A stretch of DNA of 64,000 nucleotides from Bdellovibrionales bacterium (GTDB taxonomy: Bacteria; Bdellovibrionota; Bdellovibrionia; Bdellovibrionales; UBA1609), in NCBI GenBank assembly GCA_965205645.1, contig OZ242172.1, forward strand, positions 576,122 through 640,121, given 5' to 3'. The notes below the pieces were generated by a model. The model saw only the letters and a program-made list of their open reading frames with translations, made no database searches and was not told the origin of the DNA. Shown here in pieces: positions 7,373 through 27,710 of this stretch. How positions within the stretch are numbered: the first letter of the stretch is position 1; each line of letters begins with the position of its first letter. Made by a program: the position numbers and the translations under genes.

Positions 7373-7410
7373 GTTGACGCATAGTGATTTATCATTTGTG
7401 AGATAGTAAT

Positions 7411-8169: not shown

Positions 8170-8368
8170 TGGGGACAAATTTCTAAAAAAATTAAACACA
8201 ACCAAAAATAGTGGTAAGTTGCTTGAGATAATAAGTTTTTATATTATAATTTTGCTATGGAAATCTGCAAGCAGTCATAGAATTACTGCTAAAGATGTTG
8301 CTTTTCTTTAAGTTTGTGCTTGAATGAATTTAAATTCATGACGATAATAAAAGAAGGAGTTTATTACT

Positions 8369-8578
8369 ATGAATCGTCTAAAAGAATTTCAAACATCCGA
8401 TTTGAAATATATATCAAAAAAGAGAAGAGAAGAGATTGAACAGGTGTTTAATACTTTAGGCTTGATGAATCAGAGCAATTTACCAAATTATTCTTATCCA
8501 TCTGATGGCTATAATATGCCATTTAAACAGTTTTCTGTATTAGAGAATAAAAAGATCATTTTCAGTAGTTCCAGTTAG
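8369..8578 (+). CDS. Small hypothetical protein (first gene of the inserted cassette)
   Basis: 69-aa ORF preceded by aaggag about 9 nt upstream. Its stop lies 3 nt before the start of the protease gene. No motif recognised. Confidence 0.4.
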   Translation: MNRLKEFQTSDLKYISKKRREEIEQVFNTLGLMNQSNLPNYSYPSDGYNMPFKQFSVLENKKIIFSSSS

Positions 8579-8581
8579 ATT

Positions 8582-9490
8582 ATGCCCAGTTGGAATGACA
8601 TTTTAAAAGAAATACAAAAAGAAATACAAAAAGATTCTGACAAAAATCCTTTTCATACTGTCAGACAAAAATATATTGATAAGCTTTTTAAAAAACGTCA
8701 GAGAAATGTTATTACTTACTATTCTGGCTGGCTTCAAAAATCTAATATAAAAGGTATTGAAATAAACGATAATGATAAAAATGCTTTTATGGCAGTTATT
8801 TATCAATTAGATCGATCGAAAGGATTAGATTTAATACTTCATACTCCTGGCGGTGAAGTAGCTGCAACAGAATCCTTAATTGATTATTTGAGAGAAATGT
8901 TTGATTTAAACATTGAAGTGTTTGTTCCTCAGATTGCTATGTCAGCGGGAACAGTGGTTGCTTGTGCTTCCAAACTGATACATATGGGAAAACAATCTAA
9001 TTTAGGTCCCATTGACCCTCAAATTGGAGGGCTGCCAGCTAGTGCTATATTGGATGAATTTGAAAAAGCGGCGCGAGAGATTAAAGAGCAACCAGAAAAA
9101 ATTCCATTATGGCAAGTTATTGTCAGTAAATATCATCCCAGTCTTATATTATCTTGTGAAAACGCCATTGAATGGTCGAAGGAAATAGCAAAGAAATACT
9201 TAGAGACAGGGATGTTTTCTAAGGATGCAGATATAGATATTTCTAAAATAGTGAATCATCTTTCGGATCACAAAAAAATGAAAACTCATTTTAGACATAT
9301 TGGCCTTAAGGAAGCTCAAAAGATTGGCTTAAAGATTACTCCTCTTGAAGAAGATAATGAACTTCAAGATATAGTTTTAACAATTCATCATTCCTATATG
9401 CATACATTGAATAGCACTCCTGCCATTAAAATTGTAGAAAATCATATTGGAGTTGGCCAGCTCCAGAGTTTACCAGTAGCTTCTAAATAA
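8582..9490 (+). CDS. SDH-family (Clp/SppA-fold) serine protease
   Basis: LDLILHTPGGEVAATESL and IAMSAGTVVACASKLIHMGKQSNLGPIDPQIGG match the PF01972 serine dehydrogenase proteinase / ClpP-fold signature, with the Ser in MSAG. Confidence 0.75.
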   Translation: MPSWNDILKEIQKEIQKDSDKNPFHTVRQKYIDKLFKKRQRNVITYYSGWLQKSNIKGIEINDNDKNAFMAVIYQLDRSKGLDLILHTPGGEVAATESLIDYLREMFDLNIEVFVPQIAMSAGTVVACASKLIHMGKQSNLGPIDPQIGGLPASAILDEFEKAAREIKEQPEKIPLWQVIVSKYHPSLILSCENAIEWSKEIAKKYLETGMFSKDADIDISKIVNHLSDHKKMKTHFRHIGLKEAQKIGLKITPLEEDNELQDIVLTIHHSYMHTLNSTPAIKIVENHIGVGQLQSLPVASK

Positions 9491-9510
9491 AATTGAAATC
9501 TTCTCCAGAT

Positions 9511-9543
9511 GCGGGAGTGGTGAAGTCACACCCCTTTGGGAGG
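9511..9543 (+). repeat. A-repeat, partial (head end only)
   Basis: gcgggagtggtgaagtcacacccctttgggagg corresponds to the CGCGGCGAAGTCAC-C5TTG5 end of the family. Confidence 0.6.
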
Positions 9544-9552
9544 CGAGTTATA

Positions 9553-9575
9553 TCTCAGTCGCTATTTGCAATTAA
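9553..9575 (+). repeat. Right copy of the 23-bp direct repeat bracketing the inserted cassette
   Basis: tctcagtcgctatttgcaattaa. It could also encode VAICN-stop like the left copy. Confidence 0.85.
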
Positions 9576-9580
9576 CGTAG

Positions 9581-9631
9581 TTTCTCAGGTAAAAATTTCT
9601 GTTCAAAGATTCAGACATATGTTTTGCCACC
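9581..9631 (+). repeat. Solo half of a B-repeat
   Basis: tttctcaggtaaaaatttctgttcaaagattcagacatatgttttgccacc matches the TCAAAAG-TCAGACATGCGTTTTG arm of the B family. Confidence 0.6.
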
Positions 9632-9688
9632 TTGCCATTGGGTCGGCGAGGACATTTATTTGTTAAAATGATTTACTAGTTTCTTCAG

Positions 9689-9788
9689 TTAAAAATCCAC
9701 CTCAAAAGTTCAGACATGCGTTTTGTTGTAAAGCGGACTTGCAGTCGCTTTGCAACAAAGCCGAACTCGTTTTGAGATGGATTTTTAA
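9689..9788. repeat. B-repeat hairpin element (100 bp)
   Basis: ttaaaaatccacctcaaaagttcagacatgcgttttgttgtaaagcggacttgcagtcgctttgcaacaaagccgaactcgttttgagatggatttttaa. The outer 19 nt are perfectly self-complementary. Confidence 0.85.
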
Positions 9789-9797
9789 TTAAAGAAA

Positions 9798-9875
9798 TTT
9801 ACATGATTTGTAAATATAATATGCGTGCAAGGAATCGCGGTGAAGTCACTCCCCCTTGGGGGGGCTAAGGTCTGG
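9798..9875 (+). repeat. A-repeat copy (short-core variant)
   Basis: tttacatgatttgtaaatataatatgcgtgcaaggaatcgcggtgaagtcactcccccttgggggggctaaggtctgg. Confidence 0.8.
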
Positions 9876-9999
9876 ATTTTTATTTCGATTTCAGATTTTT
9901 TAATTCCATGACCGATACTTAAGTATAGTGAAGTATGCACAATAGGTCTTTGCTGACATAATTTATAAATGAGTGAGGTAAATACCAAATAGGTTGTCT

Positions 10000-11091
10000 A
10001 TGAAGTTTAAAATATTTGTTTTATTTATTTGTTTGGTAGTGGCTTATTTATCTGCTTGTGGTCTTTACAACAGTAGCACGGATGATGTGTTTAGTTATAG
10101 CAATTCTAGTCGCTCGGGAGATGCGGGTGACGGGGATATTCCGCGCTTGTCTGAACGTTCAAAATCACGTCCAGATTTAGACGATCAACCTTGTGAAGAT
10201 CGAGAGGCTTGTCGCATTGTGTGTAAGGCTATGTATGATGATGTAGATAGTGAAGAAGAGTGTGTAGAATTAACTTATGGCAAGGTGGAAGCTTTAGAGG
10301 AAGTGTATTTAGCTTTAAGAAATGGCGAAACTGACGACACTGACGAAAATGCCGATCCCAATTTAAATGACATAGATTTTGATGATTTAGAAGAATATTT
10401 AGATATTGGATGGGATGGTTGGCTAGATGTTGTGATTCCTAAACATGTAAGGGATAAAGATTATGATAAAATATTTAATACTCTAAAATGGATTGCAGAT
10501 AATGGTGGAGCATCGGATGCACTGATGAATGTCCGGCGAGACACTAGGTACGAGCACCATGGTATTTTAAAAGGATTATTTTTAAATTATTGTCGTCCTG
10601 ATTCTGCTGGCGGTTGTGGTGCAGATAGTAGTGTAACTACAGTAACTACTTCTGCAGATGTAGCTGTTGGTCACAGTATTGAGTTTGATTATAACGCTGG
10701 TGAATTAAAGTGTTCTATATCGTCGCCGTCACAGTCTGAAATAATAATTGCATCTATTACAGAAGATCGTAAGAAAGAATTATTGATTGCGTTGAGTGCA
10801 TTAGGATCTAACTATCTAAGTAGTATTCAAAGTTTTTTTAATTATGCAGCAAATCGTAGGTATGATAATGCTCTTGAGTTAGCTCATCAGCTATTGGAAG
10901 TTGCGTGTGAAACGGATTCTGGTACTGGGTCGGTTAAATTTGAGCAATGTATTCGTGGATTTTATTGTTGGTTAAATGCTCACCATTCTGATAGTGACAG
11001 TCAAATCCTGCCAGCCGATTTTGAAGAAATAGAAATGAGTTTAAATAGTATTAATTTATCCTGTACTTGCGCTAATTTTACAGACATATAG
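10000..11091 (+). CDS. Cys-rich acidic secreted lipoprotein, paralog family member 2
   Basis: Canonical lipobox LSA|C. CEDREACRIVCKAMY, LEEYLDIGWDGW, LKWIADNG and C-terminal CIRGFYCW motifs. Confidence 0.65.
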   Translation: MKFKIFVLFICLVVAYLSACGLYNSSTDDVFSYSNSSRSGDAGDGDIPRLSERSKSRPDLDDQPCEDREACRIVCKAMYDDVDSEEECVELTYGKVEALEEVYLALRNGETDDTDENADPNLNDIDFDDLEEYLDIGWDGWLDVVIPKHVRDKDYDKIFNTLKWIADNGGASDALMNVRRDTRYEHHGILKGLFLNYCRPDSAGGCGADSSVTTVTTSADVAVGHSIEFDYNAGELKCSISSPSQSEIIIASITEDRKKELLIALSALGSNYLSSIQSFFNYAANRRYDNALELAHQLLEVACETDSGTGSVKFEQCIRGFYCWLNAHHSDSDSQILPADFEEIEMSLNSINLSCTCANFTDI

Positions 11092-11121
11092 TCAGTGAAT
11101 ATTATTTAGATGTTTTAAAAT

Positions 11122-12294
11122 ATGGAAAAGGTAAAAAAGATGGAACAACAATTAAACAGTGATTTTAAAAAAATTAGACAGCCAACTACTTGGTTTTTTA
11201 TGGCTATGATTTTTATTTTTACTTTGCTAATAGGTATGGAGTTATTTGGTTGTTCGGGTCGTCCTGGTGCTTCTGGGGTATTTGATAATAATCAGAATCA
11301 ATTTTCTTCAGATGATAGTACGGAAAATTCCGGCATATTTGAAAGTGCTGATGGGCGATTAAATTCAGATGATTTGTGCTATAACAATGAATCGTGTGTG
11401 GAATTATGTAACTCTATGCTGAAAGATTTTTCCGATCAAAAGAGATGTTATTCTTATCAAGAAGTGGATGTGCAGGCGTTTAGGGATACTTATAACAATC
11501 TGGCTTTAGGTCAAAATTTAGGTGATGTAGACTCGGATGAAATGGAATCTTTTTTGGATTTTGGTGTGGAGATATGGCGGGACGCCATTACAGGTTTTGA
11601 GCGAGATTGGCAAAGTGGTTGTGAAGTAGGTGCAGATGAACGGCTAAGTGATTGCCAGGGTGATGATTATTATTTGCAACGTGGTTATACCCGGCAAGGT
11701 GCAGCAGCGGCGCTTAGTTGGATTGCCCGTAGTGATTGGCTCGCAAAACTATTGCTAGATTATGATAATGATTTTGTCGTTATAGACGCACTGGTTGCTG
11801 TTTTAATAGATCCTGATCTTCCTAAAAAATATATAAATTTAGATTCGCCTAATACAGAAGTGATTGAATCAATTAAAGTATTTCCTGATGAAGAGCAGTG
11901 TCGGTCATATGTTAATCCAACATCAGATAATGATCCAGCTGAACCTTTAACAGAAAATTTAGCATTTAATATTCCCTGTTTAGATCAGAATTTAAATTAT
12001 ATATTATTAGCTCGGAAATATGATAATGAAGAATCTATTTTGTTAGGTGATAGGTATTGTAGTTATCTGGGTGTAGATTGTACTTTAGAAACAGCTGAGA
12101 TTTTGTTTCAAGCCGCTCAAAATGAAGGCAGAGTATATTCTTTTATTTGTGATTTACTTAGAGATGCTGGACTGATCAGTAATTGTGGTAATGATGAATG
12201 CACAGCTTGTCAAAGTTTTCAGAGAATGCTTGGTAATCCTGTTTCTGCGTGTGAAGCTGATCCTATTACTGATCAGCAACCTTGTCTTCCTTAG
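11122..12294 (+). CDS. Cys-rich acidic secreted lipoprotein, paralog family member 3
   Basis: Lipobox LFG|C. CYNNESCVELCNSML, MESFLDFGVEIW and LSWIARSDW motifs, many further Cys. Start uncertain (several in-frame ATGs). Confidence 0.65.
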   Translation: MEKVKKMEQQLNSDFKKIRQPTTWFFMAMIFIFTLLIGMELFGCSGRPGASGVFDNNQNQFSSDDSTENSGIFESADGRLNSDDLCYNNESCVELCNSMLKDFSDQKRCYSYQEVDVQAFRDTYNNLALGQNLGDVDSDEMESFLDFGVEIWRDAITGFERDWQSGCEVGADERLSDCQGDDYYLQRGYTRQGAAAALSWIARSDWLAKLLLDYDNDFVVIDALVAVLIDPDLPKKYINLDSPNTEVIESIKVFPDEEQCRSYVNPTSDNDPAEPLTENLAFNIPCLDQNLNYILLARKYDNEESILLGDRYCSYLGVDCTLETAEILFQAAQNEGRVYSFICDLLRDAGLISNCGNDECTACQSFQRMLGNPVSACEADPITDQQPCLP

Positions 12295-12295
12295 T

Positions 12296-12332
12296 AAAAA
12301 ACCTTGTTTAAAAGTTCAGACATATGTTTTAC
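12296..12332 (+). repeat. Solo half of a B-repeat directly after the stop of family member 3
   Basis: aaaaaccttgtttaaaagttcagacatatgttttac. Confidence 0.55.
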
Positions 12333-12368
12333 TTCAGACATTTGTAAAAATGATTACAAAATTGTAAG

Positions 12369-12486
12369 TTTCTCTATTTAAAAACTCTACTCAAAACGAG
12401 TTCGGCTTTGGTGCAGAGCGACTGTAAGTCTGCTTTGCAACAAAACGCATGTCTGAGTTTTTGAGTAGAGTTTTTAAATAGAGAAA
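12369..12486. repeat. B-repeat hairpin element (118 bp)
   Basis: tttctctatttaaaaactctactcaaaa-cgagttcggctttggtgcagagcgactgtaagtctgctttgcaacaaaacgcatgtctgagt-ttttgagtagagtttttaaatagagaaa. The 28-nt outer arms are perfectly complementary. Confidence 0.9.
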
Positions 12487-12505
12487 TATACATCATAATT
12501 AGTGA

Positions 12506-12574
12506 AGTCGTGACAGGTGTGCAGCGGAGTTGCGGCGAAGTCACTCCCCCTTGGGGGGCGGGGCTTAGGTCTGG
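12506..12574 (+). repeat. A-repeat copy (short-core variant)
   Basis: agtcgtgacaggtgtgcagcggagttgcggcgaagtcactcccccttggggggcggggcttaggtctgg. Shares the trailing ggct(a/t)aggtctgg with the copy at 9798. Confidence 0.8.
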
Positions 12575-12770
12575 TAATTGGTGAAAAATCTAAGGAAATA
12601 TGTTTAAGAATCCGAATTTATATTAAGATAAAGATTGTGTCAGTAGACATCATCTGGAGAGATAACACAATAATAAACATTAAAAGTAATCATTGGACAT
12701 TAGTAAAAGCTGACAGAGTGATTAAGACATAATAAAGGATGAAAAAAAAATTAACGAAGGGGAATAGGCA

Positions 12771-13913
12771 ATGCGTGGAATTAAAGAAGTATGGAATTTC
12801 ATTTGTGGTGCAGATAAAAAACTTATTCAAAAAGTTTTTGGCATATTAGTCAGTGGTTTTATTTTAACGGCGATTGTGTCAGCGGGCTTTATGTCTTGCA
12901 CACCGAATTTTGATGTGGATTCTGGCAGTTCCAGGGATAGCAATAACAATAGTGATGACGACGATGATGACGAAGATGATGGAGAAAAGTGCCTAGGTCA
13001 CGAAACTTGTGAAAAAATTTGTGAAAAAATTTATTATGCAGGCAGAGATCAAGTGGATTGCCAGGAAGAAGGCAGGAACAAAGTTGGTCGTTTGGATGAA
13101 ATATATGATCTTTTAAAAACAGGCGATTCTAGAGATTTAGAGAAAATTTTCCCAGATGAAGATGGGGTAGAACTAGATGATTTGGAAGATTATTTAAATA
13201 TTGGTATTTCTGGTGTGGAGGATTTGATTGATGAGAATAGTAAGGGTGATGATTATTGGGATGACATAAATAAGTTGGGATCTGTTTTAAAATGGATTAT
13301 TGATGAAGAAGATGTAGCAAATGTGTTAAATGGGTTAGATGATAATGGAGGACATCGTATTTTAGAAGAGCTTCTTGATAGAATGGAGGTTACTAAAGAC
13401 GGCGATTGTATTAGTAAGAATAGCCTTGCTTGTGGTACTAGTCCAACTATTAATCACGTAAATCATTATGACTATGATAGTAATAGTGGCCAAATTGAAA
13501 TTTGTACTGATAATAGAGATCCAACATTAAAAGGATCTGTTGATCTAGTTAATGGCGCTGATATACAATTATATGATGCTTTATCTTGTGTATATAATGA
13601 CTTAAGGGCTAATGGAAAAGATCAAAATGTGTTTTCTTATGCTAGTGTAAAAAATAATAGCATTATTTTTAATATGGCTTATAATTTATTAAATGATATT
13701 TGTGAAAATGTAGATGATCGCGATCCTGATCATCAAAGAGCTTGTAGAAAAGCTTTACTTTGTTGGACAGGTGTTCAAAGTGAAGAAGGTGATGATCCAA
13801 ATGAAAATTTTTTTAGGGAGTATGTGAATGATCATAGAAATGATTTAGAAAAAGATAGCGGTGGTTCTGACTATAATCAATGTCAACCAAGACATTTTGC
13901 CGATTTCTTTTAA
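12771..13913 (+). CDS. Cys-rich acidic secreted lipoprotein, paralog family member 4
   Basis: FMS|C lipobox-like site, poly-Asp/Glu linker, CLGHETCEKICEKIY, LEDYLNIGISG, LKWIIDEEDV, CRKALLCW, C-terminal NQCQPRHFADFF. Closest paralog of member 5. Confidence 0.7.
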   Translation: MRGIKEVWNFICGADKKLIQKVFGILVSGFILTAIVSAGFMSCTPNFDVDSGSSRDSNNNSDDDDDDEDDGEKCLGHETCEKICEKIYYAGRDQVDCQEEGRNKVGRLDEIYDLLKTGDSRDLEKIFPDEDGVELDDLEDYLNIGISGVEDLIDENSKGDDYWDDINKLGSVLKWIIDEEDVANVLNGLDDNGGHRILEELLDRMEVTKDGDCISKNSLACGTSPTINHVNHYDYDSNSGQIEICTDNRDPTLKGSVDLVNGADIQLYDALSCVYNDLRANGKDQNVFSYASVKNNSIIFNMAYNLLNDICENVDDRDPDHQRACRKALLCWTGVQSEEGDDPNENFFREYVNDHRNDLEKDSGGSDYNQCQPRHFADFF

Positions 13914-14360
13914 CCAGTTTTTTTCATTTCCTTTCAGTGCATCTTAAATTAGCAAAAAAATCCATGGAATATTATTATGAAAAATTTAATTCCACAAATT
14001 GTACTAGAATTAGTTAGCCTTATTAATAAAAGGTTTAGTAGTAGTTTGACAGAAAAGGAAAAAGAAAAGGAAAAAGAAAAGCTCCAATTTTTGATTGAAC
14101 AAGTTGAGCAAAAATATAAAGATTTAAAAAATTTCATTCTTTATGTGGCTGTCGGGCAGTTTATTTTAACCATTGTTGCTATGAGTGCTATTGTAACTAT
14201 GGTTGTAAATAAGATTTAATGTGAAACAATATCCAATTCTTTCATAAAATTGATCTTTATAACAATATAGCCGTTTACTCCGCTGCTATTCCAAACTTTT
14301 GTATCTATAGTTTTTTATATTTTCTAATGATCTTAATATGTTTTATACAATGCATTGGCA

Positions 14361-14512
14361 CAGTCGTGACATGCGTGCAAGGATTCACAGCGGCCGGCGA
14401 CTCGCCGCAGACATTTACTTGTAAACTTAATTAGCAAAGTTGTGACATGCGTGCAAAGAACTCGCGGCGAAAATGTCACCGGCAACTCGCCGGCCACTTT
14501 GAAGGGGGTGGA
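14361..14512 (+). repeat. Two tandem A-repeat copies (variant with a CCGGCGACTCGCCGG-type hairpin)
   Basis: cagtcgtgacatgcgtgcaaggattcacagcggccggcgactcgccg... then tttacttgtaaac...gtgacatgcgtgcaaagaactcgcggcgaaaatgtcaccggcaactcgccggccactttgaagggggtgg. Confidence 0.75.
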
Positions 14513-15128
14513 ATGGATTTTGCTAGAAGAGCTTGCAGGATTGAAAAGTGTATTCATTCACAAGCAAGAGGGCCTTCAGGAAGAGGATTTTAAATTCTTT
14601 TTTTCTAAGATTCCTGCTGAATCCAGAAAAATTATGCTAAATTATGGTTTGAAGATAATAGATACTCAGGATTCAAAGGTACGAAAAGCTTATAAAGGTC
14701 ATCAATTAAGAGGTCGTGGTGTTATAAAGCTATTATCTGAGATATGGAGTATAAAAAGACCTGCTCCGTCTAAAGTAAAGGAAATTTTTCACGATTTTGC
14801 CGATATACTGAAAAAGCTGAAAGGAAAACAAAGAAAGGACACAAGTCTAAGGATACTGGAATACTTAATTGATAATACGGGCTTAGATTTAAGGACATGG
14901 AAGAAAGCAGAGAAGTTGATTATAGAAGAGGGAATTTTAACCAGAGGAGGTGTTATGGACATAAGAGAACATATTAAAGAAAAAGGCCGTTGGGAAGGAA
15001 GACAGGAACGAAACAAGGAAGTTATTTTAAATATGCTAAAAGAGAAGGCAGATATTTCCTTTATTTCCAAAATTACAGGTTTGTCTGAGAAAGAAATAAA
15101 GAAACTAAAAAACGGTTTTTCATTATAA
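14442..15128 (+). pseudogene. Rpn/YhgA-like recombination-promoting nuclease (putative transposase), C-terminal fragment only
   Basis: The C-terminus GRWEGRQERNKEVILNMLKEKADISFISKITGLSEKEIKKLKN resembles the tail characteristic of Rpn-family proteins. No PD-(D/E)XK core is visible, and the first ~24 codons are read from an A-repeat copy. Confidence 0.4.
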
Positions 15129-15150
15129 AAAATCTGAAGATCTAATTCCC

Positions 15151-15440
15151 CTATACATTCAGCTTCATTTTCGGGTGATCTGCTGAATACGATTAATGTC
15201 TTTCACATTTTGATTACTACTTTCTTTAAGCCATGATAAAGCGATTCACAAATTAAAGTATGTCCAATTTAATATATTAAATTCATTAAATCTTGTATTC
15301 ACTCCAGTGAATCTTGTTGACACTGAAACTTATTAAATACTTCACCACTTGATCTCAGTTATGTAAATTTTTCACCTGTGCATTTCTATGAGTAATTGTT
15401 TTATTGACATTAACACTCAGTCTGTCTATAAAATTTTCAG
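15151..15440 (-). pseudogene. Scrambled pdxJ gene fragments (duplicate of the pdxJ 3' end, middle and 5' end)
   Basis: 15151-15211 matches 17282-17342. 15213-15268 matches 16790-16848, with only about 3 mismatches by eye over ~50 nt. 15310-15440 matches 17385-17512. Order is rearranged and no ORF remains. Confidence 0.7.
15404..15432 (+). promoter_or_regulatory. Candidate sigma-70 promoter (duplicate of the pstS promoter) upstream of family member 5
   Basis: TTGACA, 17-nt spacer, TATAAA. Lies in the duplicated block homologous to 17478-17506. Confidence 0.4.
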
Positions 15441-15497
15441 CAGCTCATTCAGTGAAAATCACTCAATCTTATGACATACATCAAAAGGGATGTGGAG

Positions 15498-16658
15498 ATG
15501 ACTCAAAAGAAAAATTCTGATGCATTAATAAAGCCAGTTTTTAGTCATTTAACATTTGTCATCACATTGTTTCTACAATCAACCTTTATTAGCTTGTTAT
15601 TAGCACACCCTACATTCGCCCGTTCATCCATGACAGACCGGCCGATCATTGCTGTGGCAACCAATATCGATAGAGAGAGAAAAGGTGTGAATAATGAAAA
15701 AAAATGTATGGGTCACAAAACTTGTGAGATGTGTGAAAAAATTTATGGTGCGGACAATGATAAAATAGCTTGTCAAAAAGAGAGCCTTAACAAAGTAAAT
15801 CATTTGAATAAAATATATGCTTTTTTAAAAGATGGAGATTATGAGGATTGGGATAAATTTTTCCTGGATGAAGATGAAGTGAATCTAAAATATCTAAAAG
15901 ATTACTTAAATATTGGCGATTCCGGTATAGAAAATCTTATTAAGAATCATTGGAGTGAAGATCAACTGATAAAATTCTTACAATTGATTATTGATAAAAT
16001 ACAGGTAGCGGAAATTTTATATAACTTAGCTGGAGGAAAATATCTTTTAAAAGAAATACTTCTAGCAATAAGAAATAAAACCGATCAATGTATTGGAAAT
16101 AACACTCTTAATGATTGTAATGATTCACCACACGGACATTATGGCAGAACTGGTTATGGTGTAGATTATAGTTTAGACGATGACACCGTTAATATTTGTA
16201 CTGAGGATAAAAACCCCAGTTGGTCATATACATTGGATCATCTTTTTCCATTTCCCAAAGAATTCATTTGGAAGAAAAGGAGTTTTACTTTTTTAGATGA
16301 TGATAACACGTCATTATATGACGCTTTATCTTGTTTCTCATTAATAGATAAAAGTAGCTTTTCAATTACACATTACAATGTATTTTCTTATGCTAGTATG
16401 AAAGAAAATGATTTTATTTTTAATATGGCTTATGATTTATTAAATGATACTTGTGAAGATTTTGATACTGATGAGAACGATTATAAACAACTCTGCAAAA
16501 AAGTTTCGTTTTGTTGGATTCATGAAGTAGATGAGAAACAAGGAGAGAGGAGTTTTAAATATCTTGTTGAGTTTGACTATGATGATGGTTTAGAAGGGGA
16601 TAGCGGTGGTTCTAACTATAATCAATGTGCACCAAGACATTTTGCCGAATTCTTTTAA
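15498..16658 (+). CDS. Chimeric paralog family member 5: PstS-derived leader/signal peptide fused to the Cys-rich family domain
   Basis: N-terminus MTQKKNSDAL...LLLAHPTFARSSMTDRPIIAVA is homologous at DNA and protein level to the PstS N-terminus MTQKKRSNLL...LLLATSTLAYSSMTDMPLVAAS. The rest carries CMGHKTCEMCEKIY, LKDYLNIGDSG, CKKVSFCW and NQCAPRHFAEFF. Confidence 0.75.
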   Translation: MTQKKNSDALIKPVFSHLTFVITLFLQSTFISLLLAHPTFARSSMTDRPIIAVATNIDRERKGVNNEKKCMGHKTCEMCEKIYGADNDKIACQKESLNKVNHLNKIYAFLKDGDYEDWDKFFLDEDEVNLKYLKDYLNIGDSGIENLIKNHWSEDQLIKFLQLIIDKIQVAEILYNLAGGKYLLKEILLAIRNKTDQCIGNNTLNDCNDSPHGHYGRTGYGVDYSLDDDTVNICTEDKNPSWSYTLDHLFPFPKEFIWKKRSFTFLDDDNTSLYDALSCFSLIDKSSFSITHYNVFSYASMKENDFIFNMAYDLLNDTCEDFDTDENDYKQLCKKVSFCWIHEVDEKQGERSFKYLVEFDYDDGLEGDSGGSNYNQCAPRHFAEFF

Positions 16659-16753
16659 CCAGCTTTTTCGCTCAAGTTACTTTACATAGTATATTAACTG
16701 TGTAGTTAGAGAACCAGTAATATCTATCATTAAAGTATTTTAAATGACTAATT

Positions 16754-17503
16754 TTATAATTTCTCTGTCTGGCAGATATTTAGATACTTAGTCACTACCT
16801 TCTTTAAGCCATGATAAAGCGATTCACAAATTAAAGCATGCCCAATAGAAACTTCACTCACACCTGGTACTCTTTGCAAAAAATAAGAAAGATTGTCTAA
16901 ATTTAAATCATGTCCGGCATTGATTTCTATTTTTAAATTTTTTAACTGCTCGGCTGCGCGAACATAAACAGCCGTGACTGTTTCCCTCTGAACAGTAGGC
17001 CATGCATTTGCATAAGCTTCTGTGTAAAGCTCTACACGATCCGATTGAATTTTCTGCAAAGCGCTTAATTCGGATTCTTCTAAATTAAAAGGATCTACAA
17101 ATAAAGAAGAACGAACATAGTGTTTTTTTAAAAATAAAATATTTTCAGTTAATTGGTGTATATTTTCCTTAAGCTTCCAACCGGCATTAGAAGTAAGCGC
17201 ATCAGGAGAATCCGGTACGAAAGTGCACTGGCTTGGCTTCACTGATTCAATCAGTTGCAAAAACGACCGATCCGGATATCCCTCTACATTTAACTCCACT
17301 TCCGGGTGATCCGCTAAAATACCTTTAATGTCTTTTACATCCTGGTATAAAATGTGCCGCCCATCCGGACGCGGATGCACCGTAATGCTTGTCACACCGA
17401 AACTAATTAAATCCCGCACCACTTGTCTCAGGTTAGGCAAGTTTTTCCCCCTCGCATTTCTGAGAGTGGCAATTTTATTGACATTAACACTTAGTCTAGC
17501 CAT
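16754..17503 (-). CDS. pdxJ: Pyridoxine 5'-phosphate synthase
   Basis: LSVNVNKIATLRNARG, HPRPDGRHI and the EINAGHDLN-type motif; the 249-aa length is typical for PdxJ. Confidence 0.9.
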   Translation of the reverse strand: MARLSVNVNKIATLRNARGKNLPNLRQVVRDLISFGVTSITVHPRPDGRHILYQDVKDIKGILADHPEVELNVEGYPDRSFLQLIESVKPSQCTFVPDSPDALTSNAGWKLKENIHQLTENILFLKKHYVRSSLFVDPFNLEESELSALQKIQSDRVELYTEAYANAWPTVQRETVTAVYVRAAEQLKNLKIEINAGHDLNLDNLSYFLQRVPGVSEVSIGHALICESLYHGLKKVVTKYLNICQTEKL

Positions 17504-17506
17504 AAA
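17478..17506 (+). promoter_or_regulatory. Candidate pstS promoter lying inside the 5' end of divergent pdxJ
   Basis: TTGACA, 17-nt spacer, CATAAA, about 65 nt upstream of the pstS ATG. Conserved in the duplicated copy at 15404-15432. Confidence 0.35.
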
Positions 17507-17572
17507 ATCCTTAGGCGGTTTATTCAGTAAAAATCATTCAAGCTTATAACATACATCAAAAGGGATGTGGAG

Positions 17573-18766
17573 ATGACTCAAAAGAAAAGATCTAATTTGC
17601 TGAAAAATTCGCTCTTCTTTTCTGCATTTTTACGTTTAACATTTGTTGCTGCATGGGTCATAAGCTCAATATTTACTTTGCTATTGGCAACATCCACGCT
17701 CGCTTATTCATCCATGACGGACATGCCACTTGTCGCTGCATCCGCTATCACGCAAATTAAAAAATTTGTTCGCGGAAAAAACCGCCGTCCATTACTCATT
17801 AATGGTGCAGGCGCTTCTTTCCCCTATATCCTGTACTCCAAATGGTTTTCAGAATATCAAAAGATAGATCCTTCTGTGAGAATTAATTATCGCTCCATCG
17901 GAAGCGGAGGAGGAATCCGCCAGTTCTTAATAGGTACTTTAGATTTTGGAGCTACCGATGTGCCAATTATAAAAAGTAAAATGCGCACACTCAAAACACC
18001 TCCACTACATATTCCTACCGCATTAGGCGCTGTGGTTATTAGCTATTATTTACCAACACTGAAAAATACAGATACCCTACAGCTGACACCTGTTATCCTA
18101 GCAGACATTTACCAAGGTAAAATTAAAAAATGGAATCATAAAAAAATAGTGGCCATTAACCCTAAGCTGTCTTTACCAGATCAGCAAATTGTGCCAGTGT
18201 ATCGCGCAGATGGTAGTGGTACAACAGCTGTGTTTACAGAATACCTGGCTCACTTTTCCACAGAATGGCTGCAACAAGCAGGAAAAGGTAAAGCTGTTAA
18301 CTGGCCAACCGGTATCGGAGGTAAAGGGAATGAAGGCGTGATGGGTCTTGTCCGCAAAATACCAGGCGCGATTGGTTACATTGCCTGGAGCTATGCCGCT
18401 AATATCCGATTCCCCACAGCAGCTGTCCAAAATGCATCCGGACATTTTGTAAAAGTTAGTCATGAAAATGCTAGTAACTCCGCTACACAAATTTGGAAAA
18501 AACACCACGACTTGTTTAAACCATTAGCTACTGCCAAAGGCGCTGACGCTTATCCTCTATCCTCTTATACCTACTTGCTTGTGAATCAAAAAATGCTTTC
18601 TCAAAAAGGACTCGCCATCGTAAAATTCCTTAAATGGGCTATGCAAAAAGGACAAACATTTTGCAAACCACTGCATTATATTCCACTTCCTCAACCTGTT
18701 ATACAAGCTACACTTAAACAAATAGATTCCATTTATATACCGAAAGATAATCCTATAAAAAAATGA
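17573..18766 (+). CDS. pstS: Phosphate ABC transporter substrate-binding protein
   Basis: Signal peptide, GSGGGI and YRADGSGTT motifs typical of PstS. Start moved to the ATG at 17573 (MTQKK). Confidence 0.9.
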   Translation: MTQKKRSNLLKNSLFFSAFLRLTFVAAWVISSIFTLLLATSTLAYSSMTDMPLVAASAITQIKKFVRGKNRRPLLINGAGASFPYILYSKWFSEYQKIDPSVRINYRSIGSGGGIRQFLIGTLDFGATDVPIIKSKMRTLKTPPLHIPTALGAVVISYYLPTLKNTDTLQLTPVILADIYQGKIKKWNHKKIVAINPKLSLPDQQIVPVYRADGSGTTAVFTEYLAHFSTEWLQQAGKGKAVNWPTGIGGKGNEGVMGLVRKIPGAIGYIAWSYAANIRFPTAAVQNASGHFVKVSHENASNSATQIWKKHHDLFKPLATAKGADAYPLSSYTYLLVNQKMLSQKGLAIVKFLKWAMQKGQTFCKPLHYIPLPQPVIQATLKQIDSIYIPKDNPIKK

Positions 18767-19758
18767 TTCGACTACGTAAAAATTTAAAAAAAAATGACGT
18801 ACATCTTCAAGATCAAGTGTTCTATCTTGGCTTAAAATCATTATCTATTTTTTTTATCTTTATTTTTTTATATATGCTGTTCTCTATTTTTAAAATGTCA
18901 TGGCCGGCTTTCGCTCATTTTGGAACAAATTTTTTTATCAACCCAGCATGGAATAGCTGGACAGAAAACTTCGGAGCACTTTCTTTAATATACGGTACAG
19001 TCGTTAGTTCTATCTTGGCACTCATACTCGCCGTACCGATCAGTGTGGCCACGGCACTGTGCTTGACAGAACTAGCTCCACGTTGGTTGGCACGACCTTT
19101 AAGTTTCATCGTGGAAATGCTGGCTGCTGTGCCCTCTATCGTATATGGCCTGTGGGGTTTATTTATTTTAGCACCTTTTTTACGGGATTATATCCAACCG
19201 TTTTTAGCTAAATATTTATCTTTTATACCTTTTTTTCAAGGATCTCACTACGGAGTAGGGATGATGTGCGGAGGAGTGATCTTAGCTATTATGATTGTTC
19301 CCACAATTTCATCCGTGTGCCGAGAAGTATTTAACGCCATTCCTAAATCACATCGTGAAGCTGTGCTTAGCCTAGGTGCTACCCGTTGGGAAATGCTAAA
19401 ACTAGCTGTTCTCAAAGGTGGTTTTGCCGGCATTGTTGGAGCTATTGTCATGGGCTTAGGCCGCGCACTCGGTGAAACCATGGCAATTACTATGGTCATT
19501 GGTAACGCTCCCTCCATTAAATTATCTTTGTTTGAACCTGCACAAACGATGGCTAGCATTCTAGCGAATCAATACGCAGAAGCAGATAGTGACCTGCATC
19601 TTGCCTCTTTAACGGCTATAGGTTTTACACTTTTTTGCTTGTCTCTACTTATCAATGCACTAGCACTATGGATGGTGTGGAGAATAGAAAAACAATTTCA
19701 CCCACAAACAAAAACTCCTCATAACCAAATGCTTGATTCACTGACGGAGGTGCAATGA
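18763..19758 (+). CDS. pstC: Phosphate ABC transporter permease PstC
   Basis: Six-TM permease with EAA-type loop EAVLSLGATRWEMLKLAVL. Coupled to pstS and pstA by 4-nt overlaps. Confidence 0.9.
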   Translation: MIRLRKNLKKNDVHLQDQVFYLGLKSLSIFFIFIFLYMLFSIFKMSWPAFAHFGTNFFINPAWNSWTENFGALSLIYGTVVSSILALILAVPISVATALCLTELAPRWLARPLSFIVEMLAAVPSIVYGLWGLFILAPFLRDYIQPFLAKYLSFIPFFQGSHYGVGMMCGGVILAIMIVPTISSVCREVFNAIPKSHREAVLSLGATRWEMLKLAVLKGGFAGIVGAIVMGLGRALGETMAITMVIGNAPSIKLSLFEPAQTMASILANQYAEADSDLHLASLTAIGFTLFCLSLLINALALWMVWRIEKQFHPQTKTPHNQMLDSLTEVQ

Positions 19759-20600
19759 ATCACCCCATCAGATACCAATGGCGTAAACTGGTTAACCATA
19801 CAATGATTGGCACTTTGTTTTTACTTAGCCTAGCAGCCGGTGCTACATTTTTCTTTATTGTGTACTACGTGACCAAACAAGGCTTGGGTGCTATTAACTT
19901 AAATTTTTTTACTGAACTGCCAAAGCCAGCTGGAGAAAGTGGTGGAGGAATGGCTAATGCACTGATCGGTAGTAGCTTAATTGTTGGACTCGCTTCCCTC
20001 GTCGGTATTCCTTGGGGAATCGCAATGGGTATCTACTTAACCGAATATAGGGATACATATACAGCTAAAGTTTTGCGCTTCACAGCGAATCTCTTAATGA
20101 GTGCACCCTCTATTGTTATTGGTATTTTTATTTACGGATTAGTTGTCAAAAGATATGGCTTCTCCTCCTACGCTGGTTCAATGGCGCTGCTGCTTATTAT
20201 GCTGCCAGTAGTAACACGCGGAACAGAAGAAATTTTAAAAATGATTCCTCACCATATCCGAGAAGCAGGACTCGCCCTCGGCGTGCCTCGATGGAAAACG
20301 ATCCTCTATATTCTCATCCCGGGATCCTTTAGTATGCTCCTAACTATTATCATGCTCGCTATTGCCCGTATTGCTGGAGAAACCGCACCCTTGCTCTTTA
20401 CCTCCCTTGGAAATCAATTTCATATCAATAGCTTAAATGAACCAACTGCTTCTTTGCCTGTTCAAATATACGAATTTTCCAAAAGCGGAATTGAACAAAT
20501 GGAACAACAAGCCTGGGCCGGTGCAATGGTGCTCGTCTTATTTATATTTTTTATTAACCTACTGACCCGAGTTAGCCTCTTTTTCTACGCAAAACAATAA
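19755..20600 (+). CDS. pstA: Phosphate ABC transporter permease PstA
   Basis: Permease with loop EAGLALGVPRWKTILYILIP and IAGETAPLLFT, typical of PstA. Confidence 0.9.
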   Translation: MNHPIRYQWRKLVNHTMIGTLFLLSLAAGATFFFIVYYVTKQGLGAINLNFFTELPKPAGESGGGMANALIGSSLIVGLASLVGIPWGIAMGIYLTEYRDTYTAKVLRFTANLLMSAPSIVIGIFIYGLVVKRYGFSSYAGSMALLLIMLPVVTRGTEEILKMIPHHIREAGLALGVPRWKTILYILIPGSFSMLLTIIMLAIARIAGETAPLLFTSLGNQFHINSLNEPTASLPVQIYEFSKSGIEQMEQQAWAGAMVLVLFIFFINLLTRVSLFFYAKQ

Positions 20601-20674
20601 ATTTAGATCAATTAGGCACGCTCTATGCTATACTACAATAGTCAATCTAATAAAATATAAACAAGGTGACCTTA

Positions 20675-21277
20675 ATGGATGTTGAAAAAAAAGATATACT
20701 CGTGCGCATGCTGACTACACCTAATCCTTATGCTTTAAAATTTGTTTTAAACGTGCCTCTAAAAAACATCGGTCGCGCATCTTTCTACAGTAAACAAGAA
20801 ACCACTCATCTACCCTTATTCCATTCTCTGTTTGATATTAAAGGCATAAAACAAATCTATGTGTTTCAAAATCAAATAACCATTACACATGAGGGAGCCC
20901 TTGGTGAAGAAGATATGGAAAAACAAGTAACAGCTGTGATCGGTACCCGATTGCCCATTCATGATCCAAACTTTATATCCCCAGAGGAAGAACAACAAAA
21001 CTCTACCCCTGCCAATAAAATAAAAACCGCAAAAGAAAAAACACCAGAGATGCTAAAAATAGAAGCCATCTTAGATCGCACCGTCCGACCCGGATTAAGA
21101 GCGGATGGAGGAGATATGGAAGTGCTTTCTGTTAAACAAAACGAAGTACACATTGCCTACCAAGGAGCTTGTAGCGGATGCCCCAGCGCATTTATGGGTA
21201 CACTAGAAGCTGTGGAAAGTATCCTACGACAAGAAACTGGTTGCGATACACTAAAAGTTATTCCCATAGATTCATAA
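20675..21277 (+). CDS. NFU-type Fe-S cluster scaffold/carrier (Nfu_N plus NifU C-terminal domain)
   Basis: N-terminal TPNPYALKFVLN (Nfu_N-like) and C-terminal RPGLRADGGDMEVL...GACSGCPSAFMGTL with the CxxC motif. Confidence 0.8.
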   Translation: MDVEKKDILVRMLTTPNPYALKFVLNVPLKNIGRASFYSKQETTHLPLFHSLFDIKGIKQIYVFQNQITITHEGALGEEDMEKQVTAVIGTRLPIHDPNFISPEEEQQNSTPANKIKTAKEKTPEMLKIEAILDRTVRPGLRADGGDMEVLSVKQNEVHIAYQGACSGCPSAFMGTLEAVESILRQETGCDTLKVIPIDS

Positions 21278-21333
21278 ATATTTTTTTTATAAGTTTTTTT
21301 AAATTAAAAATAGTTTTAGTGATGATACAATCA

Positions 21334-22545
21334 TTAAGCTCCATCTAAAATATTTTTTGCCTTTCGGACGGCATGAACCAATAACTGAATGTCCTCTTCA
21401 TTATTGTAAATAGAAAAAGATGCTCGCACCACACCAGATGGCAAACCATAACGTTTCATCAAAGGTAAACAACAATGATGCCCAGCTCGTACCGCCGCAC
21501 CTGCTTGCGAAATCAACTGACCCAAATCACTACAATGCAAACCGTCTATTATAAAAGATAAAATATTTACCCGTGAAGATGACCGCCCAATAATACGCAA
21601 ACCCTCTATACTCTTTAACTCTGTCTCTGCATAATGCAATAAAGCGGTAGATTTACTTTTTGTTTCCTCCAAAGAACAATTTTGATTGAGAAATTCTAAT
21701 ACCGCACCCAAAGCTAATACCGCACCAATCGCCGGCGTGCCCGCTTCAAAACGATGCGGTACGTCCGCCCATACCGCACTTAACTCATCCACATCCGATA
21801 CCATGCCGCCACCTAACTGATACGGCTGTATATTTTGCATCACCTCTTCACGCGCATAAAGTACCCCCACTCCCTCTGGTGCAAATAACTTATGCCCGGA
21901 AAAGACCAAACAATCACAACCGATTTTTTGCACATCCACCGGCTCCACCGTCATTGCCTGCGCAGCATCCACTACTGTAAGCACTCCACGCTTACGCGCC
22001 CACGCGACTAACTTCTCCACAGGATTGCACGTGCCTAATACATTAGAATAATATACAAAAGAAAATATCTTTGTCCGATCGCTCACTAAATTGTCTAACT
22101 CAGATAATACTAATTCACCCACATCATCTACTGGTAAAAATTTTAACCGTAAATTCCGCCGCTTGGCTAAAGCCTGCCAAGGTAATAAATTAGAATGATG
22201 CTCCATCTGCGTTAGTAAAATCTCGTCCCCCTCCTTTAAAGAATCTCCCAAACACGTCGCTAAAAAGTTAATACCCTCCGTAGCACTCTTTGTAAAAATA
22301 ACTTCCTCTACCTTCGCCGCACTAATCCATTTCCGTACTAGATCCCGTACCCGCTCATACCGAGTAGTTAATTGCGTACTTAAATAATGATCTCCACGAT
22401 GCACATTCGATACCTGCTGTTCATACAATTGCTTTAAAGTGTCCGGTACACACTGAAGCTTTAAAGACGTCGCGGCACTATCTAAGTACACCTGACTCTT
22501 CTGCTTCAAAAATTCCACCTGAGGAAAATGTTTCCGAAAATCCAT
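21334..22545 (-). CDS. sufS: Cysteine desulfurase, SufS type
   Basis: PLP lysine motif SGHKLFAPEGVGVLY and catalytic-Cys motif RAGHHCCLPL. Adjacent to sufD. Confidence 0.9.
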   Translation of the reverse strand: MDFRKHFPQVEFLKQKSQVYLDSAATSLKLQCVPDTLKQLYEQQVSNVHRGDHYLSTQLTTRYERVRDLVRKWISAAKVEEVIFTKSATEGINFLATCLGDSLKEGDEILLTQMEHHSNLLPWQALAKRRNLRLKFLPVDDVGELVLSELDNLVSDRTKIFSFVYYSNVLGTCNPVEKLVAWARKRGVLTVVDAAQAMTVEPVDVQKIGCDCLVFSGHKLFAPEGVGVLYAREEVMQNIQPYQLGGGMVSDVDELSAVWADVPHRFEAGTPAIGAVLALGAVLEFLNQNCSLEETKSKSTALLHYAETELKSIEGLRIIGRSSSRVNILSFIIDGLHCSDLGQLISQAGAAVRAGHHCCLPLMKRYGLPSGVVRASFSIYNNEEDIQLLVHAVRKAKNILDGA

Positions 22546-22728
22546 GTTTTTACTTCCCGTGTTTTTACTTCCCGTATTTTTACTTCCCGTTGCTTCGTGC
22601 TGCTGCAGACTTTGATCTCTAATTACATTTTTACTTCCCGTTGCTTCGTGCTGCTACATGCCCGGATTTCTAATCATGTTTTTACTTCCCGTTGCTTCGT
22701 GCTGCTACATACCCGGATCTCTAATTAT
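22546..22728. repeat. Tandem array between sufD and sufS: 15-bp unit x2 followed by a 51-bp unit x3
   Basis: Units begin (g/a)tttttacttcccgt at 22546, 22561, 22576, 22627 and 22678. The three long units continue tgcttcgtgctgct(g/a)ca... On the gene strand each unit ends ACGGGAAGTAAAAA(C/T), and the last is followed directly by the sufS ATG. Confidence 0.9.
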
Positions 22729-24146
22729 GTGACTTGTGCTTTTTTCACTTCATTCGCTAAATTTAATAATACGCTTTTATTGCGATGAATCATCTGATTT
22801 AAATGCTCCAAGCAACTATCCGCTGGAAACTGATGTAAAACATCCTTTATATAAGCAAATATCAAAAGCTCCCAAGCAGACTTCATGTCCAATCCACGAG
22901 TTTGTAAATAAAATATTTCGTTCGGATCAAAATTTCCCACCGCAGAACCATGCTGCGCCTGCACCTCGCTGCAATCAATCGCTAATTCCGGTTGGATGCA
23001 AGAGTGCGCACGATCACTTAATAATAAATTCTTGGCCGACTGACTGCAATCCACACCCTTTGCCCAAGATTCAACGTGTACCCGACCATGAAAAATACCC
23101 TTGGATTCATCATTCAATATCCCACGGCAAAATTGACGAGAATAACCCCCTGGCTTTAAATGATGCACATTAAACCGATGATCACTCTGATTCTTATTCT
23201 TTAAAATAGATAAACCTAATAATGTACTACGAGCTTTTTCCCCAACATGCACCACATCCGCCCTGTCCCTGGAAAACCGAGAACCTAAGCTAAAATGCAA
23301 ACGATCTATACTTGATTCTTTCTCCATCTCACTAATCGATTGATTAAAATAACAAGAAGAGCCACTGCCTTGCTCCACCCGAATCCATCGTAAAGCCGAC
23401 TGCTCAGAGTGATACACATTGGATACCGTATTCACTACTGCCTGTCCGTAATGAGAAATGTTCTCCACTAAAGTGAGCCGAGCTCCCTTACCCATAAAAA
23501 TAAAATTCCACCCCCCTAAGGGGGTTACTTTCGCCGCGGCTTCATTTACGTTATTGTCACTATCTTGCAAATCATGTTTACCCAGTGTCTCTGCCGACTC
23601 GGCGGCAAATACAGAATGAATGTGCAAAGCCTTAGAAGACTCATACCCATCCGGTATAAATAAAATATACCCACTTGGAAAAGCCCCAGCTAAATGAAAT
23701 AAACCATCTCCATTTCCAGCTACTTTTTTTTCTCCACGAAAACAATCCAATAACCAAGACCAACACGGAAAATCAGCATTCAACTGATCCCAAGTGCACC
23801 AACGCAAACCATCATCAATAGACGCTTCCACTAATTGATCATTATGAAAATGCAAACGATCTACATTTGGAAAATCAGCAATTAACTCTTCATTAATACT
23901 GTGCCGATCACTTACATTATTGCGCTCGGCATTCTGAAAAATGCTACGTAAAATATTCTGCACATAAGTAAACTGCCACCACTTGTCCGAACCCGACGGA
24001 AATCCCTTCTTTAAAAATTGAGCAAAATGCTTGTCCCGCATTTCACCCAATACCCGCCGCGAGTCCTCGGACGATAAGCCAAGCCATCCTTGCCGCTCCT
24101 GCTCAAATTCCTTTTTTAAAAATTCTATCCATCTGTCATCTGTCAT
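22725..24146 (-). CDS. sufD: Fe-S cluster assembly protein SufD (carries an in-frame A-repeat insertion)
   Basis: SufB/SufD C-terminal signature ...AQHGSAVGNFDPNEIFYLQTRGLDMKSAWELLIFAYI. Internal GKHDLQDSDNNVNEAAAKVTPLGG is encoded by the repeat at 23508-23583. Confidence 0.8.
   Translation of the reverse strand: MTDDRWIEFLKKEFEQERQGWLGLSSEDSRRVLGEMRDKHFAQFLKKGFPSGSDKWWQFTYVQNILRSIFQNAERNNVSDRHSINEELIADFPNVDRLHFHNDQLVEASIDDGLRWCTWDQLNADFPCWSWLLDCFRGEKKVAGNGDGLFHLAGAFPSGYILFIPDGYESSKALHIHSVFAAESAETLGKHDLQDSDNNVNEAAAKVTPLGGWNFIFMGKGARLTLVENISHYGQAVVNTVSNVYHSEQSALRWIRVEQGSGSSCYFNQSISEMEKESSIDRLHFSLGSRFSRDRADVVHVGEKARSTLLGLSILKNKNQSDHRFNVHHLKPGGYSRQFCRGILNDESKGIFHGRVHVESWAKGVDCSQSAKNLLLSDRAHSCIQPELAIDCSEVQAQHGSAVGNFDPNEIFYLQTRGLDMKSAWELLIFAYIKDVLHQFPADSCLEHLNQMIHRNKSVLLNLANEVKKAQVT
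23508..23583 (-). repeat. A-repeat copy (long-core form) inserted in frame in sufD
   Basis: ccacccccctaagggggttactttcgccgcggcttcatttacgttattgtcactatcttgcaaatcatgtttaccc. Confidence 0.9.
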
Positions 24147-25404: not shown

Positions 25405-25421
25405 AACAAGGAGAATATAAA

Positions 25422-27708: not shown

Positions 27709-27710
27709 GG

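Follow-up and report, generated by a model that had tools for sequence, protein, structure and literature searches.

In the window (the whole 64-kb stretch of Bdellovibrionales DNA analyzed here), a tandem array encodes five members of a Cys-rich lipoprotein family, and the fifth of these, M5 (15498-16658, plus strand), is a chimera: its promoter region, its Shine-Dalgarno sequence, the context of its start codon and its N-terminal leader all come from the pstS gene located further downstream. This capture of a promoter and a signal peptide is real and natural, and represents an event of a known class that involves no new mechanism. The complete reading, under which a 5' segment of pstS was duplicated and fused to a body resembling the fourth member of the array (M4; 12771-13913, plus strand), with a change of export class, appears likely to us.

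The duplicated pdxJ-pstS segment

The original prediction, made from the sequence alone, held that the divergent pdxJ-pstS region had been duplicated upstream of and into M5, and that the protein starts with a PstS leader before switching to a Cys-rich domain. Both points are borne out. In the comparison proposed as a check (dot-plot or BLASTN of the two regions), a blastn search with 15050-15750 against the whole window produced four matches, all in the same orientation: the core match between 15320-15521 and 17394-17596 (81% over 204 nt, E = 9e-48), those between 15216-15268 and 16794-16846 (94% over 53 nt, E = 7e-18) and between 15149-15208 and 17280-17340 (80% over 61 nt, E = 3e-9), and a weak one between 15538-15638 and 17627-17722 (69%). 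No comparable match to this query was detected elsewhere in the window. At the protein level, tblastn placed the copied fragments at residues 3-40 (interrupted by a stop), 220-239 and 54-62 of PdxJ, and aligned PstS residues 1-70 with M5 residues 1-65 (44% identity, E = 8e-9).

The anatomy of the copy emerges from a four-way alignment of source and copy, each taken from the window and from L001, a contig of an independent European Nucleotide Archive assembly (ERZ25067264) that derives from another sample. In this alignment, 15140-15654 is a diverged, collinear copy of 17270-17738, a source segment that spans pdxJ codons 1 to ~78, the pdxJ-pstS intergenic region and the pstS leader. The earlier view of three pdxJ pieces in rearranged order and devoid of an open reading frame (ORF) is accordingly to be revised in part: no intact ORF is present, as claimed, but the pieces belong to one collinear copy in which only a 53-bp patch is misplaced. 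Together with ~7 additional nt, this patch is inserted between the material from codons 55-78 and the remainder of the copy; with the 53-bp insert removed, the neighboring pieces are 51 nt apart, compared with 53 nt in the source. The identity between copy and source varies along the segment, from 69% for pdxJ codons 11-40 to 84% in the promoter block, 79% in the upstream part of the untranslated region (UTR), 92% over the last 51 nt including the start codon, and 62% in the remaining leader. Given that the patch is 94-96% identical to its source, compared with 69-77% for the adjoining pseudogene pieces, it appears to be younger than the main duplication or to have been homogenized later. The pdxJ copy beside M5 is dead, its start codon having changed from CAT to TAT, and consists of codons 1 to ~78 and 220-239, as opposed to the full-length PF03740 match of the gene beside pstS; pstS itself is intact as well (336.4 bits with TIGR00975, above the cut-off of 205 bits). 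The features in and around the duplication are the following:

12771-13913, plus strand: M4, the closest paralog of M5 (38% amino acid identity), with a lipoprotein leader (…SAGFMSC-TP) and an acidic linker
14574-15128, plus strand: 5'-deleted remnant of a gene of the Rpn (recombination-promoting nuclease) family (TIGR01784, 32.8 bits)
15140-15208, minus strand: pdxJ pseudogene fragment, codons ~55-78, the left end of the copy (77% identical to 17270-17340)
15216-15268, minus strand: 53-bp patch from the pdxJ 3' end, codons 220-239 (94% identical to 16794-16846), also present in L001
15269-15319, minus strand: strongly diverged stretch in the place of pdxJ codons 41-54 (49% identical to 17341-17393; 51 nt versus 53 nt), which may be filler DNA
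15320-15432, minus strand: pdxJ pseudogene fragment, codons 1-40, start lost, internal stop
15404-15432, plus strand: promoter-like site TTGACA-17-TATAAA, from upstream of pstS, identical in the window and L001
15433-15497, plus strand: 5' UTR from pstS, with AAGGGA at 15485-15490 (88% repeat match; alignment)
15498-15654, plus strand: PstS-derived leader of M5, residues 1 to ~52, lacking a lipobox Cys (alignments)
15655-15690, plus strand: fusion junction, 12 codons between the pstS and M4 homology that are assignable to neither parent
15691-16658, plus strand: Cys-rich family domain of M5, all family-invariant Cys kept
16754-17503, minus strand: intact pdxJ, the source of the fragments (PF03740, 243.7 bits)
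17504-17572, plus strand: pdxJ-pstS intergenic region, source copy, 69 bp
17573-18766, plus strand: intact pstS, whose first ~52 codons are the source of the M5 leader (TIGR00975, 336 bits)

Expression signals and predicted export of M5

The copy contains TTGACA at 15404-15409, a 17-nt spacer and TATAAA at 15427-15432 (an alternative -10 element is TAAAAT at 15429-15434), followed by the Shine-Dalgarno sequence and the ATG at 15498. In the source, TTGACA at 17478-17483 is again followed by 17 nt and then by CATAAA at 17501-17506, the CAT of which is the start codon of pdxJ on the opposite strand, and a 40-nt translation-initiation stretch (ACATACATCAAAAGGGATGTGGAGATGACTCAAAAGAAAA) is identical between copy and source. 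The promoter, Shine-Dalgarno and start-codon motifs named in the original prediction are therefore in place, with coordinates shifted by ~1 nt and with CATAAA as the -10 element of the source. Since M5 inherits the pstS upstream block along with the identical 40-nt initiation region, co-expression with pstS is the default expectation: M5 is probably transcribed and translated from pstS-type signals, and pstS-like regulation is a reasonable inference. In both strains, the M5 copy additionally contains an upstream in-frame ATG at 15471-15473 (MTYIKRDVE-MTQKK…) in the place of ATA in pstS; no Shine-Dalgarno sequence precedes it, and gene callers start there, which yields a 395-residue product.

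The leader of M5 consists of a positively charged N-terminus (MTQKK…), a hydrophobic segment (LTFVITLFLQSTFISLLLA) and, by inspection, the putative signal peptidase I site HPTFA-RS, with an unusually long core. Relative to the pstS leader, it has lost 12 nt and gained 3 nt, in each case without a frameshift. The pstS homology stops near 15654 and, in the repeat comparison, the M4 homology starts at 15691 at the latest, so that the junction falls within what in M4 is the acidic linker, downstream of the lipobox and ahead of the first Cys motif. The M5 ORF is continuous across this junction (15498-16658), making the gene an in-frame fusion of 386 codons, and the body of the protein shows no similarity to PstS.

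Two observations on pstS concern the same region. In L001, pstS carries an in-frame insertion (13281-13431) of 29 extra codons that originate from a dispersed GC-rich hairpin repeat (…CCCCCAGGGGGAGTTACTTTCGCCGCG…) and directly follow the leader, at the position where the homology between M5 and pstS ends. Codon 2 of the window pstS (17576) is ACT, as in both M5 copies, compared with GCT in the L001 pstS and GTT in the related contig L072 (Logan SRR1576521); the ACT is perhaps left over from a gene conversion in which the M5 copy was the donor and pstS the recipient.

The five family members in the window (7411-8169, 9994-11091, 11122-12294, 12771-13913 and 15498-16658) share a set of Cys residues (in M5 numbering, C70, C76, C79, C92, C319, C333, C339 and C377), all of which are present in M5. 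No Pfam or NCBIfam model matches the family, and a profile search of 1.84 billion representatives retrieved 553 cluster representatives with E ≤ 1e-3 and 260 with E ≤ 1e-10, from metagenomes. In a family alignment of 76 sequences, analyzed with a script and by inspection, the column of the lipobox Cys is at least 90% conserved: 74 members contain this residue and only M5 and its ortholog P0001 lack it. The expectation that M4, the closest paralog, has a normal lipoprotein leader is confirmed, and nearly all of the family resembles M4 in this respect.

The first Cys of M5, C70, lies inside the folded domain, and the absence of a lipobox leaves the protein outside the definition of a lipoprotein processed by signal peptidase II. 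An AlphaFold2 model built from the 76-sequence alignment (predicted local distance difference test, pLDDT, 82.5; predicted template modeling score, pTM, 0.78) contains a helix at residues 11-35, a disordered stretch at 37-62 and, starting around residue 68, a domain of helices and sheet; an earlier model from 8 sequences was set aside (pLDDT 59.7). A Foldseek search with the M5 model against the PDB gave no match (best E 0.19, template modeling score 0.2). Considering that the leader is devoid of Cys and includes a plausible signal peptidase I site, lipidation appears to have been lost, and we infer that M5 is exported via Sec with a type I, non-lipidated leader, as a soluble or N-terminally anchored periplasmic protein.

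M4 itself differs between the two strains. Its product is only 58% identical between the window and L001 (7174-8310), with a synonymous divergence of 0.82, compared with 78-98% for the neighboring genes, and its 3' flank differs as well. Either the M4 allele has been replaced by recombination or the locus is hypervariable, and M4 is thus a poor witness to the parent gene.

Relatives, probable origin and alternative explanations

At E ≤ 1e-3, M5 has only three relatives, and in the databases searched no protein other than the M5 ortholog is closer to it than the M4 type. A search of representative genomes with M5 yielded no relative, so that the lineage is known only from metagenome assemblies. 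The M5 ortholog, P0001 (90% amino acid identity), is encoded on L001, which is syntenic with the window (94-98% nucleotide identity in housekeeping genes; 93.7% between window positions 14574-16857 and L001 positions 9081-11387) and shares the chimera, the pdxJ fragments and the 53-bp patch. The fusion is therefore not specific to one strain, a possibility that had been raised for checking in related genomes, and it predates the split of the two strains, which amounts to ~5% neutral divergence. On a more distant contig, L002, two M4-type genes lie in tandem, each with a lipoprotein leader, and an M5-type gene is absent.

The source is an uncultured, Bdellovibrio-like member of Bdellovibrionota, and its nearest species representative is the Bdellovibrionales metagenome-assembled genome L003 (67% identity in PstS), which also encodes one distant member of the family. 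The divergent pdxJ-pstS arrangement is intact in L003, L072, L073 and L074; given this conservation and the dead pdxJ on the M5 side, the arrangement is ancestral and the direction of copying is from pstS to M5. L072 (87% identity in PdxJ) encodes a PstS with a homologous leader (…ATPAFARSS…) whose R, D and H also occur in the M5 copy; the present pstS of the window appears to have lost these residues, which would be ancestral, and the character states fit a duplication either before or after the split from L072. The 167 nt past the pdxJ stop codon in L072 resemble the 3' flank of M4 in L001 (78.8%, E = 2e-27), and no other copies of this flank were found among the DNA compared. L072 thus probably represents the empty site, with the M4 flank abutting pdxJ and no rpn gene, pdxJ pseudogene or M5 between them, at a point where the contig ends. 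L073 and L074 are uninformative with respect to an unfused M5 because the neighbors of pdxJ are unrelated proteins in both.

The left edge of the copy adjoins the Rpn-family remnant, whose stop codon is 12 nt away; this gene thus truncates the pdxJ pseudogene at about codon 78. The listed ORF (14442-15128) starts with a spurious GTG extension. The window remnant scores below the TIGR01784 cut-off of 52.1 bits and covers only model positions 169-273, that is, the C-terminal third, whereas its L001 ortholog is full-length (349 amino acids, 62.7 bits, above the cut-off); the window has no counterpart of L001 8605-9080, and the nuclease half is gone.

On the basis of these comparisons, we propose that ~515 bp comprising the first ~78 codons of pdxJ, the 69-bp intergenic region and ~52 codons of pstS were duplicated and fused, in frame, to the portion of an M4-like lipoprotein gene that encodes the mature protein. 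The captured piece of pdxJ would then have decayed to a pseudogene, later acquired, as a templated patch, 53 bp of the pdxJ 3' end, and been truncated on the left by the rpn gene. Under one route, a tandem duplication would have extended from within the M4-like gene to just past the pstS leader, with the fusion at its junction, and would have left a second pdxJ between parent and chimera that was later gutted by the rpn insertion; the probable empty site in L072 and the position of the debris fit this route. Replicative template-switch insertion with templated patches would be an equally good description. The similarity of the M4 and M5 3' flanks (68.7%) was considered as a sign of tandem duplication and rejected, being limited to the last 84 nt of the genes and ~10 nt beyond. 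These last 84 nt are 89% identical between M4 and M5 of the window, and since the similarity is specific to the window allele of M4 (0.83-0.88, as against 0.67-0.74 with the other M4 alleles), gene conversion is its apparent cause.

Several results count against this reading or against parts of it. A simple tandem duplication of M4 body, M4 3' flank, pdxJ and leader predicts a copy of that flank after M5, but the 95-nt spacer between M5 and pdxJ has no similarity to the M4 flank of L001 and L072. Several points weaken the claim on regulation. A scan for the sigma-70 consensus did not list the TTGACA/TATAAA site, because TATAAA lacks a T at position 6 of the second hexamer. The conservation of TTGACA in the source, where it lies within conserved pdxJ codons (SVNVNK) in every relative, is uninformative on promoter function, given that pdxJ coding constrains it. 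No Pho box of the Escherichia coli type (CTGTCAT, 4 nt, CTGTCAT) was found within 3 mismatches near 15380-15497 or 17450-17572, although phosphate control could still operate since this consensus is that of E. coli and perhaps not that of this phylum. No phoU, phoB or phoR was detected in the stretch scanned (20666-33840). An Rfam scan of 7000-18000 returned nothing supportive. As a separate observation on this locus, an Nfu/NifU gene comes immediately after pstS, pstC and pstA (17573-21277), a layout shared with L074; with no pstB or phoU after pstA, the ATPase of the Pst system must be encoded elsewhere.

The same caution extends to constraint on the protein. The ratio of non-synonymous to synonymous substitution rates (dN/dS) between the window and L001 is 0.69 for M5 overall and 0.34 for the leader (6 non-synonymous and 5 synonymous substitutions), and reaches 0.91 in the body (34 and 8), which is indistinguishable from neutrality; in comparison, it is 0.35-0.65 for the first three members of the array (M1-M3) and 0.04-0.20 for pstC, pstA, pstS and pdxJ. 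Premature stops are absent from 21% of neutral simulations. M5 could, then, be a non-functional by-product of local rearrangement, a young pseudogene that has so far escaped disabling mutations, and its substitution rate in the coding sequence (4.6%), which is close to that of the flanking pseudogene (5.2%), fits this view along with the ratio in the body and the simulations. We nevertheless consider it unlikely. In both strains the ORF of 386 codons is preserved, and the two versions differ by 53 substitutions but not by a single indel, compared with the indels, stop codon and lost start of the neighboring pseudogene of the same age. The leader has undergone only in-frame indels since the fusion (-12 and +3 nt). 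Every family-invariant Cys is retained, and high dN/dS values in the other family members are as expected of fast-evolving exported proteins. The promoter and UTR are invariant between the strains, with 0 differences in 99 positions as against 14 in 268 plus 2 indels in the adjacent pdxJ pseudogene (Fisher's test, p = 0.011; p = 0.009 against the pseudogene and spacer combined). We read these data as suggesting that M5 is maintained under weak or diversifying selection, with a recent loss of function possible; a function of M5 is thus partly supported.

The export prediction meets a different difficulty in the length of the hydrophobic segment: at ~23 residues, an uncleaved membrane anchor is thinkable, which would leave M5 tethered to the inner membrane rather than released. 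The single predicted helix followed by a disordered linker fits such a topology, as does the tolerance of the L001 pstS for the repeat-derived 29-codon insertion right after the hydrophobic segment, suggestive of a tether-like linker. However, the motif (T/H)P(T/A)FA-(R/Y)SS, which has small residues at both -1 and -3 and a Pro at position -4 or -5, is kept in M5, in PstS and in the PstS of L072 and is, by inspection, typical of a signal peptidase I site. We therefore regard permanent anchoring as possible, if somewhat improbable. A reversed history, in which pstS received its leader and upstream region from a gene of the M family, has nothing in its favor beyond the symmetry of any pairwise homology and is already contradicted by the data: pdxJ is intact beside pstS and fragmentary and dead beside M5, the divergent pdxJ-pstS pair is older than the family array, and the usual leader of the family is a lipoprotein signal. 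It is very improbable. Even less credence is due to an assembly artefact, that is, a chimeric or collapsed metagenome contig. The window does appear to derive from a metagenome contig, but the copies differ by 20-30% and so are not mis-joined reads of one locus, and the independent assembly from another sample shows the same structure with its own 4-6% divergence, which contradicts this explanation.

Beyond the duplication-and-fusion scenario itself, the leader swap might have been adaptive, turning a lipid-anchored copy into a soluble protein that is co-induced with phosphate uptake, in a locally active regime of rearrangement. This extension, which we regard as doubtful, concerns one copy of a fast-evolving family of the surface or periplasm in a Bdellovibrio-like and possibly predatory bacterium. 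Involved in the rearrangement regime would be genes for Rpn nucleases, the pdxJ 3' end with its recurrent duplication, and a palindromic, dispersed repeat with in-frame coding insertions at the boundary between signal peptide and mature domain.

Local rearrangements and known systems

Repeats and rearrangements surround the locus in both strains. In L001, a RelE/ParE-type toxin-antitoxin pair (TIGR02683 and TIGR02684; 11522-12185) lies between M5 and pdxJ, with directly repeated copies of the final ~109 bp of pdxJ on its two sides (11279-11387 and 12311-12419); given that the 53-bp patch comes from the same pdxJ segment, the 3' end of pdxJ has been duplicated repeatedly. Window copies related to the repeat in the L001 pstS are found at 14402-14472, 40627-40699, 40723-40795, 37726-37795, 23513-23581, 9821-9861 and 12519-12556. 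The phosphoglucomutase gene (ORF 25845-27581, minus strand) contains an in-frame, tandemly duplicated insert at 26308-26451, with …DNNVNEAAAKPLPL… present twice, that is missing from the L074 ortholog and matches the same dispersed repeat family. In their in-frame insertion into genes, such repeats are reminiscent of the Rickettsia palindromic elements. A family of self-complementary intergenic repeats of 100-200 bp, similar to miniature inverted-repeat transposable elements or repetitive extragenic palindromes, occurs at 9490-9870, 12280-12570, 27642-27829, 57157-57260, 37722-37809, 41646-41712 and 46972-47041; several are located between members of the lipoprotein array, and the Rfam scan of 7000-18000 gave no match to them.

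Rpn proteins, the family to which the gene abutting the left edge of the duplication belongs, are PD-(D/E)XK nucleases that are horizontally transferred and are not conventional transposases (PMC10400941; see also PMC5350276 on YhgA-like Rpn proteins). The L001 gene contains three GRQE repeats (8610-9659) compared with one in the window, resembling the 4-amino-acid variation described for RpnS domains (PMC10400941); unlike a full Rpn, the window copy lacks the nuclease half and retains only the C-terminal, RpnS-like part. A role of Rpn activity in the rearrangement is no more than a possibility.

Among the closest known parallels are the upstream-homology-box genes of Borrelia burgdorferi, reportedly described by Marconi et al. 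in 1996 (PMC178399) and Akins et al. in 1999 (PMC96492). In these genes (ospE/ospF/elp, Erp), which share promoter and leader modules according to references given in PMC10016077, recombination has reportedly placed one promoter region and leader in front of unrelated mature exported proteins, much as in M5. The Borrelia leader is itself that of a lipoprotein and is spread across many genes on multicopy cp32 prophage plasmids, whereas M5 represents one isolated capture, with a housekeeping transporter gene of the chromosome as donor, with a change of leader class from lipoprotein to non-lipoprotein and with a piece of the divergent neighbor pdxJ carried along.

In E. coli, promoter capture via local duplication or deletion has been shown experimentally to activate a transferred gene (PMC6614815), and the Cit+ duplication of the long-term evolution experiment, as cited in that paper, is a similar case. 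As in M5, a local duplication brings a gene under the promoter of its neighbor, with microhomology-mediated illegitimate recombination as the usual route. These are, however, laboratory events that involved only transcription signals, whereas the M5 capture is natural, older than the ~5% strain split, and includes a translation start and an export signal taken over in frame. Chimeric genes reported at the junctions of tandem duplications in eukaryotes, for example in Drosophila (PMC4069613), likewise combine the 5' part of one gene with the 3' part of another at the breakpoint while the parents are kept. M5 differs in being bacterial and in what was fused, namely a targeting signal instead of a domain with a catalytic or structural role. 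What is less usual about M5 is the combination of a housekeeping transporter as the donor, a change of leader class, and the preservation of parents, debris and a probable empty site.

M5 would thus be an unusually legible natural case in which one local duplication rewires transcription, translation initiation and cellular targeting, and it may provide a testable handle on a widespread, uncharacterized lipoprotein family of Bdellovibrionota.

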